This document shows, one piece after another, positions 16,510 through 23,540 of a DNA stretch of 32,000 bases. Source of the stretch: Promethearchaeota archaeon (GTDB lineage: Archaea > Asgardarchaeota > Lokiarchaeia > Sigyniarchaeales > Promethearchaeaceae); NCBI GenBank assembly GCA_016933055.1, contig JAFGBS010000031.1, forward strand, positions 82,465 to 114,464, in the 5' to 3' direction. A program made the position numbers and the translations under genes. The notes under the pieces were generated by a model. It saw only the letters and a list, made by a program, of their open reading frames with translations. It was not told the origin of the DNA and did not search any database. Each line of letters begins with the position of its first letter. Within the stretch, counting starts at the first letter, position 1.

Positions 16510-17580
16510 TTATCTAAATTTGGATAGATCTAATTCGAATAGTCCGTGGTCTTTAATCACATCTAATATTTTTTCAATTAATAACTCAAGATTTTTTTTA
16601 TCTTTAGCATTGGTTCGTATTATAGATAGATTTCCTATTTCTGGCTCAATTTTTTTCTGGAGTTCTTCCATTTCTTCATCTGTTGCAAGATCCATTTTAT
16701 TGAATATAATTATGCAAGGCACACCCACCTTATTGATGAATTCATGCAAGATTTCTTTGAATAAGGATATTTGATGATGTATTGAATAACCTGATGTTTT
16801 CGACGGATCAAAGATAAAGATGATAATATTGGAAATTGTTCGCAATGCCAGTATCGCTTTTTTCTCAATATGATTACGTTCGATCATCGGTCGGTCTAAA
16901 ATTCCTGGTGTATCAATCAACTGGAATAATTTAGTGTCTTGGGCATCTTTATATAATCCTATGATTATCTCTTTGGTGGTGAAAGGGTATTCTCTGATTT
17001 GAGGTTTGGCAGTCGAAATAGCCCTAACCAGGCTTGATTTTCCTACGTTAGGGTAACCCGCAATAACTGCTGCTGGAAGCTCCGTATCAATTACTGGGAT
17101 AGACTTTAATTGCCTTCGGGCCTTTTCTAAATATTCCAATGTATTTTTCTGTGCTTTAATGACGGATGCAACCCGTGCATAATATTGTCTTCGCACTATA
17201 CTACATTGATTTGAGCTGGTTTGCTGGTTAATTTCCCGAATTTTTGAGGATAATAATTTCTGCAAGACAGGAATTATTCCATTCAATCGTCCCAGATTAT
17301 TTTTTAAAATCTCTTTATCTACTAAAAGATGACTTAATTCTTGGTAAAAAGGATGTAATTCATCTAAATTGGGAACAGATTGGATGATATTTTTAATCCG
17401 ATTTACAATATAGGAATTAACATTTTGAATTCGATTTACTTCATTTCTTTTTGCTTTTAAAACATTATCAAAGCGTTGAGGAATTGGGGCAGTTTTTTTT
17501 GAGCTACGACCGAATGCAATGTCAATGAGTTCTTCTGCGCTAGGAACTGGATAAAAATTTTCAAAAGGATTCTTTGCCAT
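16510..17580 (-). CDS. nog1: NOG1-family (Obg/DRG-like) GTPase, large ribosomal subunit biogenesis
   Basis: N-terminal helical NOG1 region (ELIDIAF.R...LHPFY.EL), G1 AGYPNVGKSSL, G2 YPFTTK, G3 DTPG, G4 NKMD. Start ATG 17580 or 17592. Confidence 0.9.
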   Translation of the reverse strand: MAKNPFENFYPVPSAEELIDIAFGRSSKKTAPIPQRFDNVLKAKRNEVNRIQNVNSYIVNRIKNIIQSVPNLDELHPFYQELSHLLVDKEILKNNLGRLNGIIPVLQKLLSSKIREINQQTSSNQCSIVRRQYYARVASVIKAQKNTLEYLEKARRQLKSIPVIDTELPAAVIAGYPNVGKSSLVRAISTAKPQIREYPFTTKEIIIGLYKDAQDTKLFQLIDTPGILDRPMIERNHIEKKAILALRTISNIIIFIFDPSKTSGYSIHHQISLFKEILHEFINKVGVPCIIIFNKMDLATDEEMEELQKKIEPEIGNLSIIRTNAKDKKNLELLIEKILDVIKDHGLFELDLSKFR

Positions 17581-17863
17581 TGGTGGATGCACCGGTCACA
17601 CGTTTTATATATAGAATTTGGTTTGTTTGCTCGTTGAAAATCTTTTCTATTCTGTGAAAGGGAATCCGAATTCTTTCTTGAATCGCAGAATTCCAATATT
17701 CAAATGAATCCGAATGGATTTCGAGTAAATTTTCAAATGCAATAATTAAATAATCTTTAGGGACCCCCCGATGTGTATATTGAATCATGACATGAGTTTT
17801 TTGGCTGGAATACTTGGGGTCCCATTTGATTTGATTTAGTAATTCACGAATTGTCAGCAACAA
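17561..17863 (-). CDS. DUF504 (MJ1316-like RNA-end-recognition domain) protein
   Basis: IRELLNQIKWDP, I.Y.HRG and IPFHRIEKI motifs. Confidence 0.8.
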   Translation of the reverse strand: MLLTIRELLNQIKWDPKYSSQKTHVMIQYTHRGVPKDYLIIAFENLLEIHSDSFEYWNSAIQERIRIPFHRIEKIFNEQTNQILYIKRVTGASTNGKESF

Positions 17864-20138: not shown

Positions 20139-21197
20139 TTAATTATGAGCAAGAATGAGGATCTCGTTAGAGGATCGGGTACTTAGCGCATATTTATGGT
20201 CGATACTATTAACAATCGATACTGCACTCCAACGTTCTTTTAAAAGATCAATCAACTCAGTTGTGGAGGGTATTCCATCAGAACGATGAGAAAGAAGTAT
20301 ATTGGATTCTTTATAGCGTTTTAAGAGCATTTTAAAAGCGTTATATATATTTCTTTTATCATTCCATACATTATATATGGGTTTTATCCTTTTATGCTTA
20401 GATTTGGTATCAATTTGATCAATCCAACTATCATATTGCATTATTCCCTCGAGAAAATGGTATAGATCACGATATATAATGTTCTCCCCCCGTTTTGGAA
20501 TATAGGGAGGATCTATATACACCAAATCAAATCCGTTTTCGTAATAATCCAAGGGAACTTGCATGACATCTAAACTAAGTGCTGAACACCCATGATTCGT
20601 TTTAATTATATATGAGTTAACTTCTTCGGCAAATTTTTTGAAGTGCACTTCAAACGGGGTATCCCAAGTGACTTTATTTCCGAAGGAGCGATTTACATTG
20701 CGTGTACGCAAATATAAATTCTTACGATGGAATAAACTAAAAGGTCTTTTTGTTATACATGATTGGAATAAACACCAAAATCCCAAATCTCGTGTATATC
20801 CTGGTTCTAGTTCATACAAATTCGAAATCACACGATCTAACCAGATATTTTCGTCATGAGTATAATAAATATCTGCGAACTGCTCTTCAATAAGATGAGG
20901 GTGTTGATTATAGGATTTTTGATGCAAAATTCGGTTGACATCGGCCTTAGTGAGTCTAACCTCTGAATTTTCAATTAGTGCACGACCCACAGTATAATTA
21001 AATTTCAAATGATCATTGAAGAGAACTTGCTTATCCAGCCTTTTAAATAAATACGAAACTACTCCCGTACCTGCAAAAGCATCCAAAACAGTTGTAAAAT
21101 TTAAATTTTTAACTACATCATAGATTGCGGGAACGATCTTTACCTTTGAGCCTCTGTATCGAGTAGTAAACGTAAAACCGTCTAAAAAAGATGTCAT
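20139..21197 (-). CDS. Orphan DNA adenine (N6) methyltransferase, D12/alpha class
   Basis: Motif X RYRGSK, motif I LDAFAGTG, ND, and motif IV DLVYIDPPY in alpha order. No endonuclease gene adjacent. Confidence 0.85.
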   Translation of the reverse strand: MTSFLDGFTFTTRYRGSKVKIVPAIYDVVKNLNFTTVLDAFAGTGVVSYLFKRLDKQVLFNDHLKFNYTVGRALIENSEVRLTKADVNRILHQKSYNQHPHLIEEQFADIYYTHDENIWLDRVISNLYELEPGYTRDLGFWCLFQSCITKRPFSLFHRKNLYLRTRNVNRSFGNKVTWDTPFEVHFKKFAEEVNSYIIKTNHGCSALSLDVMQVPLDYYENGFDLVYIDPPYIPKRGENIIYRDLYHFLEGIMQYDSWIDQIDTKSKHKRIKPIYNVWNDKRNIYNAFKMLLKRYKESNILLSHRSDGIPSTTELIDLLKERWSAVSIVNSIDHKYALSTRSSNEILILAHN

Positions 21198-21198
21198 T

Positions 21199-21891
21199 TT
21201 ATTTCTTCAATACTTTTTTAACAGAACCATCTTCCAATCCTATGTAGCATCCATCCACCATATCAACAAATAATCCAGTTTCGACAATTCCTGGGATCCT
21301 TATTAATTCCAATTCCAAATTTAAAGGGTTCTTGATTAAGCTGAAGTCTGCATCCAAGATAAAATTACCGTTATCAGTTACTATTGGTCCCGCTTTATTC
21401 ACTGCCATACGTAAAGTAGGAATCCCTTTCATTTTTTCGATTTTTTTCATGATCGGGATATATGAACTTGGGATAACTTCAATAGGAACTCCCTTTTTCC
21501 ATTTTTCACCTAATACTTTGGAATCTTTATTGAAATCCGCAACAATAATGACCCTTTTAGAATTATAAGCGAGAATTTTTTCTTGAACATGGCATCCTCC
21601 CCCACCCTTGATTAAATTCAAGTCTTCATCAATCTCATCTGCTCCATCAAACGTGACATCTACAACAGGAAATTCATTTAATGAGCCTATGGATAGACCA
21701 TGATGGATAAGTATTTGGGTAGTTTGAAAAGAAGAAGGAATGCAGATGATATCTTGTTTTCCCCAATCAGCAATCCTTTTCACTGCATAAACTATAGTGG
21801 AACCGGATCCAATTCCAATTATTTTATTATTCATTAAATTTTCGTCAACTGCTTGATAGGCAGCATTTTTTTTCGCTTCTTCTACCGACAT
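21199..21891 (-). CDS. rpiA: Ribose-5-phosphate isomerase A
   Basis: [50 protein letters not shown]. Confidence 0.95.
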   Translation of the reverse strand: [230 protein letters not shown]

Positions 21892-21933: not shown

Positions 21934-23073
21934 TCAAATTAGTTCCTTAAGGTTGTTTGTATTCATCACTTTGGAATACATAAAAGGATCTGTTGCACCC
22001 TCCGTAGAAAAAACTAAAAAGTTGGTCGAGTCATCGATATGATAATATTCTCTTATTTGACTCCCTTCTTCTGAGAATAATAGAACAAGCGCTGCAAAGC
22101 TTGCAGCTCCCGATTCTCCCGATACTATATTCTGTTTTGCGAGAACTTTCATAGCTTTCAATGCCTGTTCATCACTGACCAAGAGAAATGCATCCACCCC
22201 CTCTCTTAAGATTGGGAAAGAAATGGTTGAAATCCTTCCACAACTCAATCCTGCCATTACAGATTCATATCGTCCTTTTAAAGTTATGATTAAATCTTGA
22301 CGAATCGATTCTAATGCACAAGGGGCTTTTTTCGGTTCTACTCCTAAGATAATCGGATGATATGGGGAAGTCGACTTGTAGAACTGTATTACGGCAGAGA
22401 TAAAACTACCTACTCCAATTGGGGCTATAATCACATCTGGATTTGGTAGGTCGTTTGTAGACAACTGTTCTTCGATTTCCCAAAACATTGTGGAATATCC
22501 CTCTACGATGTACTTCGGTATATCTTCATATCCCACATAACCCGTGTCTTGGATTATTATTGCATCTTGCTTACTTGCAATTTCTACGGCTTTATCGTAA
22601 TTTCCATTTATGATTATTACTTGAGCTCCTTCGGACTCAATCGCTCTAATTCTCGATTCTTTAGTATGTTTTGGGACATAAATCCGAGCTTTTAAACCTA
22701 ATAGTCTGGCTATGAATGCTACTGCTCTACCATGATTTCCATCCGTTGCTGTGACTAACTCTAATCCTCCACATTTTGCTAATTCTGATTTAAATTCATC
22801 AATAGTAGAATATTTTATGTTAAATTTTTGTTCTAACACTTTAAAAGTTGCAAAAGAAGCTCCCAATACTTTAAAAGCGGGTAAAGTAAAACGATTGGAT
22901 TCATCTTTGACATAAATGTTATTATATCCATAAAATTCTGCTATATTTTTTACAGAATGTAAAGGTGAGGCATTATAAACAGGCAGAGAACGGTGAAATT
23001 CAAGTGCTCTTGTAGAAAAAGGAGGGAGGTTGATACTTGATTGTGCACGAGAATTAATAAGGAAATTTGACAT
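21934..23073 (-). CDS. dpaL: Diaminopropionate ammonia-lyase family (PLP-dependent, fold type II)
   Basis: VKDESNRF.LPAFKVLGAS (PLP Lys), TATDGNHGRAVA, QDTGY.GY..IP..I..GY.T, MAGLSCG, SGESGAA, STEGATDP. Confidence 0.85.
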   Translation of the reverse strand: MSNFLINSRAQSSINLPPFSTRALEFHRSLPVYNASPLHSVKNIAEFYGYNNIYVKDESNRFTLPAFKVLGASFATFKVLEQKFNIKYSTIDEFKSELAKCGGLELVTATDGNHGRAVAFIARLLGLKARIYVPKHTKESRIRAIESEGAQVIIINGNYDKAVEIASKQDAIIIQDTGYVGYEDIPKYIVEGYSTMFWEIEEQLSTNDLPNPDVIIAPIGVGSFISAVIQFYKSTSPYHPIILGVEPKKAPCALESIRQDLIITLKGRYESVMAGLSCGRISTISFPILREGVDAFLLVSDEQALKAMKVLAKQNIVSGESGAASFAALVLLFSEEGSQIREYYHIDDSTNFLVFSTEGATDPFMYSKVMNTNNLKELI

Positions 23074-23090
23074 ATATTCCTCATCACAAT

Positions 23091-23540
23091 TTATAAATTG
23101 TGTTCATAAAGAAGCAATTCGGAGCGTTTAATTCCCAATTTCATGAGAATGGACTGAAATCGGGAGTTTTTTGGATCGCACAAAATCTCAATTTTTGAAA
23201 TATTCATGGTATTTTTGATGTATTTGAATAGTTCTCTCATAATTGCTTCTTCAATTCCTTTTGTGTATGCATCTTCCTTATATGTTAGAACTTGATGGAT
23301 TATGCAATGAGGGTTTCCAAACTCGTCATTATACGGGGAAAATGTGCCTGCGCCAATAATTTTTCCATCTTCTTTAGCGAGAATTATTGAATTACGTAAT
23401 TTAAGATCCAGAACACGTTGCTCTATTTCTTTTTTGAACTGGGCTTGCTCAAAAGGAATATAACTCCGATCTGAAAATGCAATTGCTAATTTAATAAACT
23501 CTTCTTTATCTTTCCGCGGATCATATCGTACAATTTCCAT
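23091..23540 (-). CDS. GNAT-fold putative N-acetyltransferase (degenerate)
   Basis: MEIVRY...EEFIKL, IILAKEDGKIIGAG, weak motif A (YTKGIEEAIMRELF), IEILC...KLGIK. Size typical of GNAT proteins. Confidence 0.55.
   Translation of the reverse strand: MEIVRYDPRKDKEEFIKLAIAFSDRSYIPFEQAQFKKEIEQRVLDLKLRNSIILAKEDGKIIGAGTFSPYNDEFGNPHCIIHQVLTYKEDAYTKGIEEAIMRELFKYIKNTMNISKIEILCDPKNSRFQSILMKLGIKRSELLLYEHNL

Follow-up and report, generated by a model that had tools for sequence, protein, structure and literature searches.

Introduction

The link between eukaryotic ribose-5-phosphate isomerase (RPIA) and Asgard archaea is already published. In the tree of Santana-Molina et al. (2025, Nat Ecol Evol; PMC11976288), Asgardarchaeota are adjoined, with 97% UFBoot, by a large cluster of eukaryotic RPIA from Amorphea and a few Discoba. 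RPIA is treated in that study as one of six putative Asgard contributions to the central carbon metabolism of LECA, with a later replacement of RPIA by RpiB in some eukaryotes (PMC11976288). Since RPIA is one of the few central-carbon enzymes for which an Asgard-eukaryote link has been claimed, it bears on the question of whether the host supplied metabolism besides informational and cytoskeletal genes.

Here, we describe the rpiA gene of a 32,000-nucleotide stretch of Promethearchaeota DNA, which we call the window. A sequence-only reading of this DNA had proposed that its RpiA looks like that of eukaryotes rather than that of typical prokaryotes, and that the eukaryotic isomerase may descend from the Asgard host lineage, with transfer in either direction as the alternative. 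We found that the window protein belongs to a subtype of RpiA shared by eukaryotes, Lokiarchaeales and some Hodarchaeaceae (the two archaeal groups together are referred to as Loki/Hod), to which it adds one further, rather divergent Lokiarchaeal member.

An intact gene for RpiA in the window

Judged by its sequence, the window gene is an ordinary, intact ribose-5-phosphate isomerase A (EC 5.3.1.6), as had been read from the ORF, and every motif quoted in that reading is present in the translation (Table 1). We assigned RpiA function because the protein scores well over the curated cut-offs of the family profiles, matches solved structures over its full length and retains the catalytic residues. 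PF06026 was matched at profile positions 1-173 of 173 (1e-60, 204.7 bits; cut-off 26), and the scores for TIGR00021 (241.6 bits; cut-off 126.4) and NF001924 (222.5 bits; cut-off 192) were likewise high. A phmmer search found 21 solved RpiA chains that match nearly the whole protein with E values from 1e-63 to 1e-25 (best 1.4e-63), and the window protein is predicted to adopt the RpiA fold.

Pairwise alignment with E. coli K-12 RpiA placed E. coli D81, D84, K94, E103 and K121 opposite D82, D85, K95, E104 and K122 of the window protein, which also keeps the Ser and Thr residues of its phosphate loop. For E. coli Asp81, Asp84, Lys94, Glu103 and Lys121, we assume the roles known from the E. coli and Pyrococcus horikoshii structures. 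The DGADE and KGGG...EK motifs were kept across every group in an alignment of 95 sequences. The window enzyme would use the acid-base chemistry typical of RpiA to interconvert ribulose-5-phosphate and ribose-5-phosphate.

Table 1. The rpiA gene and its landmarks, in positions of the window
Feature	Position	Strand	Remarks
rpiA, RpiA of the eukaryote/Loki subtype	21199..21891	-	intact ORF, ATG start, 230 aa
Phosphate-binding loop GIGSGST, residues 26-32	21796..21816	-	S29/S31/T32 aligned to E. coli T28/S30/T31
DGADE, residues 82-86, active-site aspartates D82 and D85	21634..21648	-	aligned to E. coli D81, D84
Residues 95-105, catalytic K95 and E104 and signature Cys100	21577..21609	-	aligned to E. 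coli K94, E103
Cys100 codon	21592-21594	-	signature Cys within residues 95-105
W-K-K-G, residues 131-134, 2-3-residue insertion ahead of PIEV strand	21490..21501	-	alignment gaps elsewhere

The whole genome (3.76 Mb, 36 contigs, 91% complete) contains a single PF06026 match, which is the window's rpiA, and a search for RpiB gave no match in this 91%-complete assembly; the window RpiA is the sole ribose-5-phosphate isomerase found in the genome. Searches of the same 91%-complete genome found neither a ribulose-phosphate 3-epimerase nor a transketolase above the cut-off. The genome encodes a transaldolase/FSA-family protein. Its best match to hexulose-6-phosphate synthase scores 199 bits and lies in a 473-aa frame as a candidate fusion, at 18146-18763 of contig 6; two further matches are weaker, and PHI-like SIS matches are weak only. 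A PRPP synthase (275 bits) lies approximately 18 kb upstream of rpiA on the same contig. In the usual archaeal scheme, fructose-6-phosphate is converted via hexulose-6-phosphate to ribulose-5-phosphate, which RpiA isomerizes to ribose-5-phosphate for PRPP. The window RpiA probably has this metabolic role, taking ribulose-5-phosphate from the archaeal reverse ribulose-monophosphate route and feeding ribose-5-phosphate to PRPP synthase.

The gene lies between a PALP gene and a methyltransferase gene. This trio is conserved within the genus only, and it was absent within 1.5 kb of rpiA at 53 other Loki/Hod loci. Conservation of the neighborhood gives no clue to gene mobility.

The window protein resembles eukaryotic RPIA

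Among solved structures, the window protein scored highest against 1xtz (217.6 bits), the S. cerevisiae Rki1 structure, followed by the euryarchaeal RpiA structures 1lk5 (172.6 bits) and 3ixq (152.7 bits) and by E. coli 1ks2 (102.9 bits; phmmer). When we searched 1.84 billion proteins as 50%-identity representatives with phmmer, the named top matches were Balamuthia, Anolis, Lynx, a frog, two heteroloboseans and fungi, at 46-58% identity, and a chytrid, a zoopagomycete, Seison and nematodes were further eukaryotic members. The identity to Balamuthia RPIA was 58% by phmmer and 56% by BLASTP. Eukaryotes outscored any archaeon outside Loki/Hod by 30-100 bits. A beetle protein (P0021) that also ranked very high was set aside; it is an incorrectly modelled tandem gene, and its two partial RpiA copies inflate the score.

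The nearest proteins of all are a small group of metagenomic Promethearchaeota sequences at 74-84% identity, and one genome of the same genus carries a copy that is 80% identical. Among GTDB species representatives, identities of 50-62% were seen only in Promethearchaeia/Lokiarchaeia and in records labelled Hodarchaeota or 'Heimdall', and the next best representatives (Bathyarchaeia, Methanosarcina, Odin, Jord and Thor) did not exceed 48%. Archaeal RpiA outside Lokiarchaeales and Hodarchaeaceae was at most 49% identical to the window protein, and bacterial RpiA was 27-38% identical. With a best structure in yeast Rki1, eukaryotes as top representatives and other archaea at 49% or below, the proposal that this RpiA is eukaryote-like was borne out.

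The resemblance is also seen from the eukaryotic side. When a heterolobosean RPIA was used as the query, Lokiarchaeal RpiA, including that of MK-D1 and L. ossiferum, was 60-66% identical to it, about as close as the proteins of oomycetes, fishes and Capsaspora. Plastid- or bacterial-type eukaryotic RpiA (plants, apicomplexans) reached only approximately 120 bits in the search against solved structures and lies far from the clade described below.

Two characters set the subtype apart

We collected signature characters from the 95-sequence alignment and from pattern counts over all collected sequences. A Cys after GGGG is present at all 60 Loki/Hod-type loci and in 136 of 138 eukaryote-clade proteins, compared to 4 of the 109 remaining prokaryotic loci, which comprise 47 from other Asgard archaea, 54 from TACK and Euryarchaeota and 8 from Bacteria. 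Ordinary archaeal RpiA has Ala at this position, except at 4 of 101 archaeal loci. The W..G.P[IVLM]E pattern was found at 59/60 Loki/Hod-type loci, in 103/138 eukaryote-clade proteins and at 0/109 other prokaryotic loci, and the W-x-x-G site is a gap in all other Asgard, TACK, euryarchaeal and bacterial rows of the alignment. The expectation that many prokaryotes lack both characters agrees with these counts (4/109 and 0/109), which make the Cys after GGGG and W-x-x-G the discriminating characters of the subtype.

The vertebrate motifs that the sequence-only reading had cited, including LGDQW, are visible in the 95-sequence alignment, and the cited yeast motifs are visible in the alignment of the window protein with 1xtz. 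One cue did not hold. GSGST, as opposed to GTGST, had been taken to point to eukaryotes; GSGST is common in Bathyarchaeia and other TACK RpiA as well as in other Asgard RpiA, and we rejected it as a eukaryotic signature. The two remaining characters provide a quick diagnostic for the subtype and pose a testable structure-function question.

The subtype has a narrow range among the Asgard archaea sampled

We refer to families by code where needed: f1 is the window's own family (including Harpocratesius repetitus and Promethearchaeum sp.), f22 is Hodarchaeaceae (including B3_Heim), f8 includes Jordarchaeum, f3 clusters with an Odinarchaeia record, and f7 clusters with a Thorarchaeota record. A survey of 151 genomes of the phylum returned an RpiA match in 145. 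Scores above 250 bits occurred only in f1, f2 and four of the seven f22 genomes, and all others among the 151 scored at most 190 bits. In a survey of the class (81 genomes), the seven genomes from other orders had RpiA of at most 49% identity or were without a match. The RpiA of these other Lokiarchaeia orders (f28-f30) was 44-49% identical to the window protein, and neither the Cys nor W-x-x-G was present in it. Together with Thor, Odin, Jord and the other sampled Asgard families, these orders have ordinary archaeal RpiA types. Among the genomes searched, the eukaryote-like type was not found outside Lokiarchaeales and part of one Hodarchaeaceae genus.

Within Hodarchaeaceae, the subtype is present in B3_Heim and in the closed 4.9-Mb chromosome CP070695, among others. 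Since a closed chromosome carries it, the Hodarchaeaceae copies are not a binning artefact. Three genomes of the GTDB genus of B3_Heim have a divergent RpiA instead, which is 30-32% identical to the window protein and groups with other Asgard families. All eight Hodarchaeaceae sequences of the subtype fell, in one to three places within Lokiarchaeales, inside a 22-row clade (100/98 in dataset 1, see below) that leaves out the basal Lokiarchaeal lineages, namely the f1 genomes, MK-D1, L. ossiferum and Harpocratesius. An Asgard-wide presence of the type, with copies in the sister orders and native copies in Hodarchaeales, was not found among these genomes.

Eukaryotic and Loki/Hod RpiA form one clade among archaeal sequences

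Three trees were inferred with IQ-TREE under LG+C20+F+G4 (PMSF), with support given as UFBoot/SH-aLRT. Dataset 1 (95 rows) comprised 20 eukaryotes, 28 Loki/Hod, 24 other Asgard, 10 TACK, 6 Euryarchaeota and 7 Bacteria. For dataset 2 (98 rows), Seison was removed, the long f6 branch was given relatives, and probable invertebrates, the other Lokiarchaeia orders and further database representatives were added. Dataset 3 (53 rows) was built to minimize long-branch attraction and held only short-branch eukaryotes, including echinoderms, a hemichordate, a nemertean and insects, and close archaeal outgroups. The eukaryote sample of all trees is without Archaeplastida and plastid-type RpiA.

Eukaryotes and Loki/Hod formed a clade with 99/84 in dataset 1, 100/99 in dataset 2, where the bootstrap was not fully converged, and 100/99 in dataset 3; these values should be read with the caveat that UFBoot may overstate support under model misfit. 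The eukaryotes of this clade are animals, fungi, Capsaspora, Amoebozoa, Heterolobosea and oomycetes, and its stem in dataset 3 is approximately 0.48 substitutions per site. The clade branches from among Asgard, TACK and euryarchaeal RpiA, with bacteria outside and monophyletic in datasets 1 and 2 (97/88 in dataset 1). Nesting among ordinary archaeal or bacterial RpiA, apart from eukaryotes, had been named beforehand as the result that would speak against a eukaryote-like RpiA; the window sequence instead fell with the eukaryotes at 99-100 UFBoot. Since the clade sits among archaeal and not bacterial RpiA, the simplest reading is that the eukaryotic enzyme is of archaeal ancestry. The published RPIA tree (PMC11976288) is in independent agreement with this clade.

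Loki/Hod monophyly had 99/92 support in dataset 1 and dropped to 54/84 in dataset 3. The window RpiA is a divergent Lokiarchaeal member, with a stem of its own of approximately 0.3 substitutions per site in dataset 1. What lies next to the clade shifted with sampling, from family f6 in dataset 1 to Odin (97/89) in dataset 2. The f6 sequence (L116) as sister of the clade (91/88, dataset 1) was rejected as a long-branch artefact, and it moved off after four relatives were added.

The branching order inside the clade differed among the trees. In dataset 1, vertebrates and Seison branched first and Loki/Hod joined the remaining eukaryotes at 98/86, and in dataset 2 Metazoa again branched first (96/90), with the P0177 group, leaving Loki/Hod among the other eukaryotes. 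The interior of the clade in dataset 3 is a star, in which Metazoa are monophyletic (100/99) and not basal and Balamuthia branches first at only 87/69. In no dataset did any of the 200 bootstrap trees unite the eukaryotes in one clade, and an AU test on dataset 1 did not reject eukaryote monophyly (delta lnL 11.5, p 0.292).

Four sequences that entered the clade in dataset 2 (P0177, P0181, P0190 and P0208; 100/99) were considered as an archaeal sister group, and this placement was rejected. Three of them have the Cys and two have the W insertion, and the nearest named relatives of P0177 are all animals, at 50-56% identity. Divergent eukaryotes are the most likely source of all four.

The eukaryote that branches first varied with sampling and was always a long branch: nematodes, vertebrates with Seison, the P0177 group with Metazoa, or Balamuthia. 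The nematodes, which stood at the base of the clade in a FastTree overview, were dismissed as a long-branch effect. Because the basal eukaryote changes in this way and the nested topologies break up Opisthokonta, the shifting root inside the clade points to an outgroup drawn to long branches. Altogether, the clade of eukaryotes with Loki/Hod and its embedding among archaea are robust, and the position of the root within it is not.

The other Lokiarchaeia orders grouped with f16 in a backbone polytomy of dataset 2, and not beside Lokiarchaeales. A clade of all Lokiarchaeia orders with eukaryotes was not rejected by the AU test on this dataset (delta lnL 10.4, p 0.315). Vertical descent within Lokiarchaeia is permitted by these data and not supported by them, since the subtype was not found in the sampled genomes of the sister orders and these branch apart from Lokiarchaeales in the free tree.

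Origin of the subtype and direction of transfer

We lean towards an Asgard origin of the subtype, a history whose direction we infer. RpiA with a Cys after GGGG and with W-x-x-G would have arisen within archaeal RpiA diversity, in an Asgard lineage on or close to the Lokiarchaeales stem. It would then have entered the eukaryotic stem prior to LECA, carried by the host or acquired by transfer. A later spread from Lokiarchaeales to Hodarchaeaceae would account for the Hodarchaeaceae copies, since all of them lie inside the 100/98 clade that lacks the basal Lokiarchaeal lineages. Counted against this history are the position of Loki/Hod inside eukaryotes in two of the three trees (98/86 and 96/90), the lack of a measurable eukaryotic stem branch and the very short stem of Loki/Hod (0.05-0.07). 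Those features would fit better if a stem or early crown eukaryote had given a modified RPIA to the ancestor of Lokiarchaeales, where it replaced the native gene, a course of events that we consider rather unlikely. The subtype would then have arisen on the eukaryotic stem from the archaeal RpiA of the host and passed later from Lokiarchaeales to Hodarchaeaceae, so that eukaryotes would still owe their enzyme to archaea, and the Lokiarchaeal gene would be secondary and no evidence of host heritage. Loki/Hod sits among non-metazoan eukaryotes at 98/86 and 96/90, a branch of eukaryotes only occurs in no bootstrap tree, and Loki/Hod is compact, short-stemmed and about as far from each eukaryotic lineage as those are from one another (60-66%). 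The Asgard range in the genomes sampled, one order and part of one Hodarchaeaceae genus, is narrow, and sister orders of the same class are without both signatures and branch elsewhere. Against such a gift from eukaryotes, their monophyly is not rejected by the AU test (delta lnL 11.5, p 0.29), the apparent basal eukaryotes are always long branches that change with sampling, and the interior of dataset 3 is a star in which Metazoa are no longer basal. Moreover, the nested topologies conflict with the monophyly of Opisthokonta and need extra events or an artefact, and no tree recovered a specific eukaryotic donor group. Because the root inside the clade shifts with sampling, the trees do not fix the direction of transfer, and a single protein of 230 residues cannot polarize it. 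The caveat of the sequence-only reading, that transfer in either direction is an alternative, stands with a branching order that varies among trees.

Strict vertical descent from a Hodarchaeales-like host is a further possibility, in which the shared ancestor of Hodarchaeales and eukaryotes would already have had the subtype as its own and Hodarchaeales would have passed it to Lokiarchaeales. The subtype does occur in Hodarchaeaceae, including B3_Heim and the closed chromosome CP070695, and work by Eme and colleagues from 2023 is said to favor Hodarchaeales as the closest relatives of eukaryotes at present. However, the Hodarchaeaceae copies are nested in Lokiarchaeales (the 100/98 clade), which is the opposite of what this model predicts, and three genomes of the genus of B3_Heim have the divergent RpiA (30-32% identity to the window protein). 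We regard descent from such a host as improbable, and it is disfavored because of this nesting inside Lokiarchaeal diversity. Far less probable still, to the point of being negligible, is that the window protein is an ordinary archaeal RpiA whose eukaryotic resemblance arose by chance, convergence or composition. The GSGST cue, widespread in TACK and other Asgard RpiA, would suit it, but the shared insertion occurs in no other sampled prokaryote and the clade has 99-100 support under a site-heterogeneous model in three datasets. The window protein also scores 30-100 bits higher against eukaryotes than against archaea outside Loki/Hod, the GC of the gene (0.349) equals that of the window (0.350), and the amino-acid composition of the sequence was not flagged as unusual. 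We take this reading to be refuted by the trees and the shared insertion.

The proposed descent of the eukaryotic isomerase from the Asgard host is partly supported: the clade with Loki/Hod within archaeal RpiA speaks for an archaeal ancestry, and the narrow distribution, the nested Hodarchaeaceae copies and the ordinary RpiA of other Asgard archaea lend no support to the host lineage as such. RPIA alone is weak evidence for host heritage, since its Asgard side is confined to Lokiarchaeales with nested Hodarchaeaceae copies and 230 residues cannot polarize transfer. If the gene had instead passed from eukaryotes to Lokiarchaeales, one of the six published 'Asgard contributions' to carbon metabolism would run in reverse, and the gene would be evidence of ancient gene flow from proto-eukaryotes to Asgard archaea.

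Comparison with known systems

Compared to the published RPIA tree (PMC11976288), our analysis narrows the Asgard side to Lokiarchaeales with nested Hodarchaeaceae copies only and places oomycetes in the cluster as well. It also finds that eukaryote monophyly is neither recovered nor rejected.

Ordinary archaeal RpiA (1LK5 and 3IXQ; Bathyarchaeia, Methanosarcina, Thor, Odin and Jord) has the same fold family, catalytic residues and length as the window protein and often shares GSGST with it, but none has W-x-x-G, and all lie outside the clade supported at 99-100. The RpiA of MK-D1 (Promethearchaeum syntrophicum), Lokiarchaeum ossiferum and B3_Heim is of the same clade and length class and has the same signatures; nevertheless, the proteins of MK-D1, L. 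ossiferum and Hodarchaeaceae are only 50-63% identical to that of the window. Although the window genome belongs to the GTDB family of MK-D1 and Harpocratesius, its RpiA groups with sequences of family f2 in dataset 1, and it resembles eukaryotic RPIA less than typical Lokiarchaeal RpiA does, the latter being 60-66% identical to that of a heterolobosean.

Eukaryotic cytosolic RPIA, as in S. cerevisiae Rki1 (PDB 1XTZ) and vertebrates, is of the same family and subtype as the window protein and aligns with it over the full length. Many eukaryotic models carry an N-terminal extension of 40-300 residues and yeast Rki1 has small eukaryotic loop insertions, both of which the window protein lacks. 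What the eukaryotic and window enzymes have in common is the Cys after GGGG, the W-x-x-G insertion and the KAGP...TDNGNF segment.

Results

RpiA of the window genome is placed away from that of the other members of its family. This genome carries the GTDB family code f1, which is common to Harpocratesius and a Promethearchaeum sp. When we used loci L003, L007, L034, and L041 as comparison sequences for its placement in trees, the window RpiA fell inside a clade dominated by family f2, apart from the other f1 sequences (UFBoot/SH-aLRT support of 98/95), on a long stem of about 0.3. The placement and the stem together point to either accelerated evolution or transfer within the order.

We found two RpiA types in a single GTDB genus of Hodarchaeaceae (g36, to which B3_Heim belongs). 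The Loki/eukaryote type is present in four of its genomes (among them loci L027, L030, and L031 of G062, G102, and G119). On the other hand, three others (G130, G136, and G139; loci L138, L139, and L140) possess a very divergent RpiA instead, which has 30-32% identity to the window protein and groups with other Asgard families in trees. Since both types are found inside g36 and each genome has a single RpiA match, these sequences suggest a recent replacement through transfer from Lokiarchaeales.

One animal sequence, P0021 from the beetle Rhamnusium bicolor (GenBank 'hypothetical protein NQ314_005381'), is a 371-aa gene model that holds a tandem pair of incomplete RpiA copies, both of which lack internal segments. 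An error of annotation or assembly probably explains this model, and the doubling of the RpiA domains pushes it too high among HMMER hits.

In the window, rpiA lies on the same strand as a pyridoxal-phosphate-dependent enzyme (PALP) gene, which ends 42 bases upstream, and it looks co-transcribed with the gene for a D12-class methyltransferase, since the latter starts one base past the rpiA stop codon. The trio is kept in G185, the sole other genome of the genus, at a DNA identity of 72%, and was not found within 1.5 kb of rpiA at the 53 other Loki/Hod loci checked.

Since a search of the window's own genome (G000) found no epimerase, RpiB, or clear transketolase, the ribulose-monophosphate route is the probable source of its pentoses, rather than a pentose-phosphate pathway. 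The hexulose-6-phosphate synthase of this genome is a predicted fusion, since its domain lies within a longer frame.

Features in the window and elsewhere in its genome (G000)
Feature	Location	Strand	Length	Remarks
GTPase	window 16510-17592	-	360 aa	NOG1_N, MMR_HSR1, and NOG1 domains
D12-class N6-adenine DNA methyltransferase	window 20139-21197	-	352 aa	PF02086, 7e-17
Pyridoxal-phosphate-dependent enzyme	window 21934-23073	-	379 aa	PF00291 PALP, 2e-56
Small GNAT acetyltransferase	window 23091-23540			precedes PALP gene
Hexulose-6-phosphate synthase domain	G000, contig C6, 18146-18763			within 473-aa frame
PRPP synthase match	G000, contig C5, 64613-65518			one TAA read through

The GTPase encoded in the window is the archaeal counterpart of Nog1, the eukaryotic nucleolar GTPase of ribosome biogenesis.
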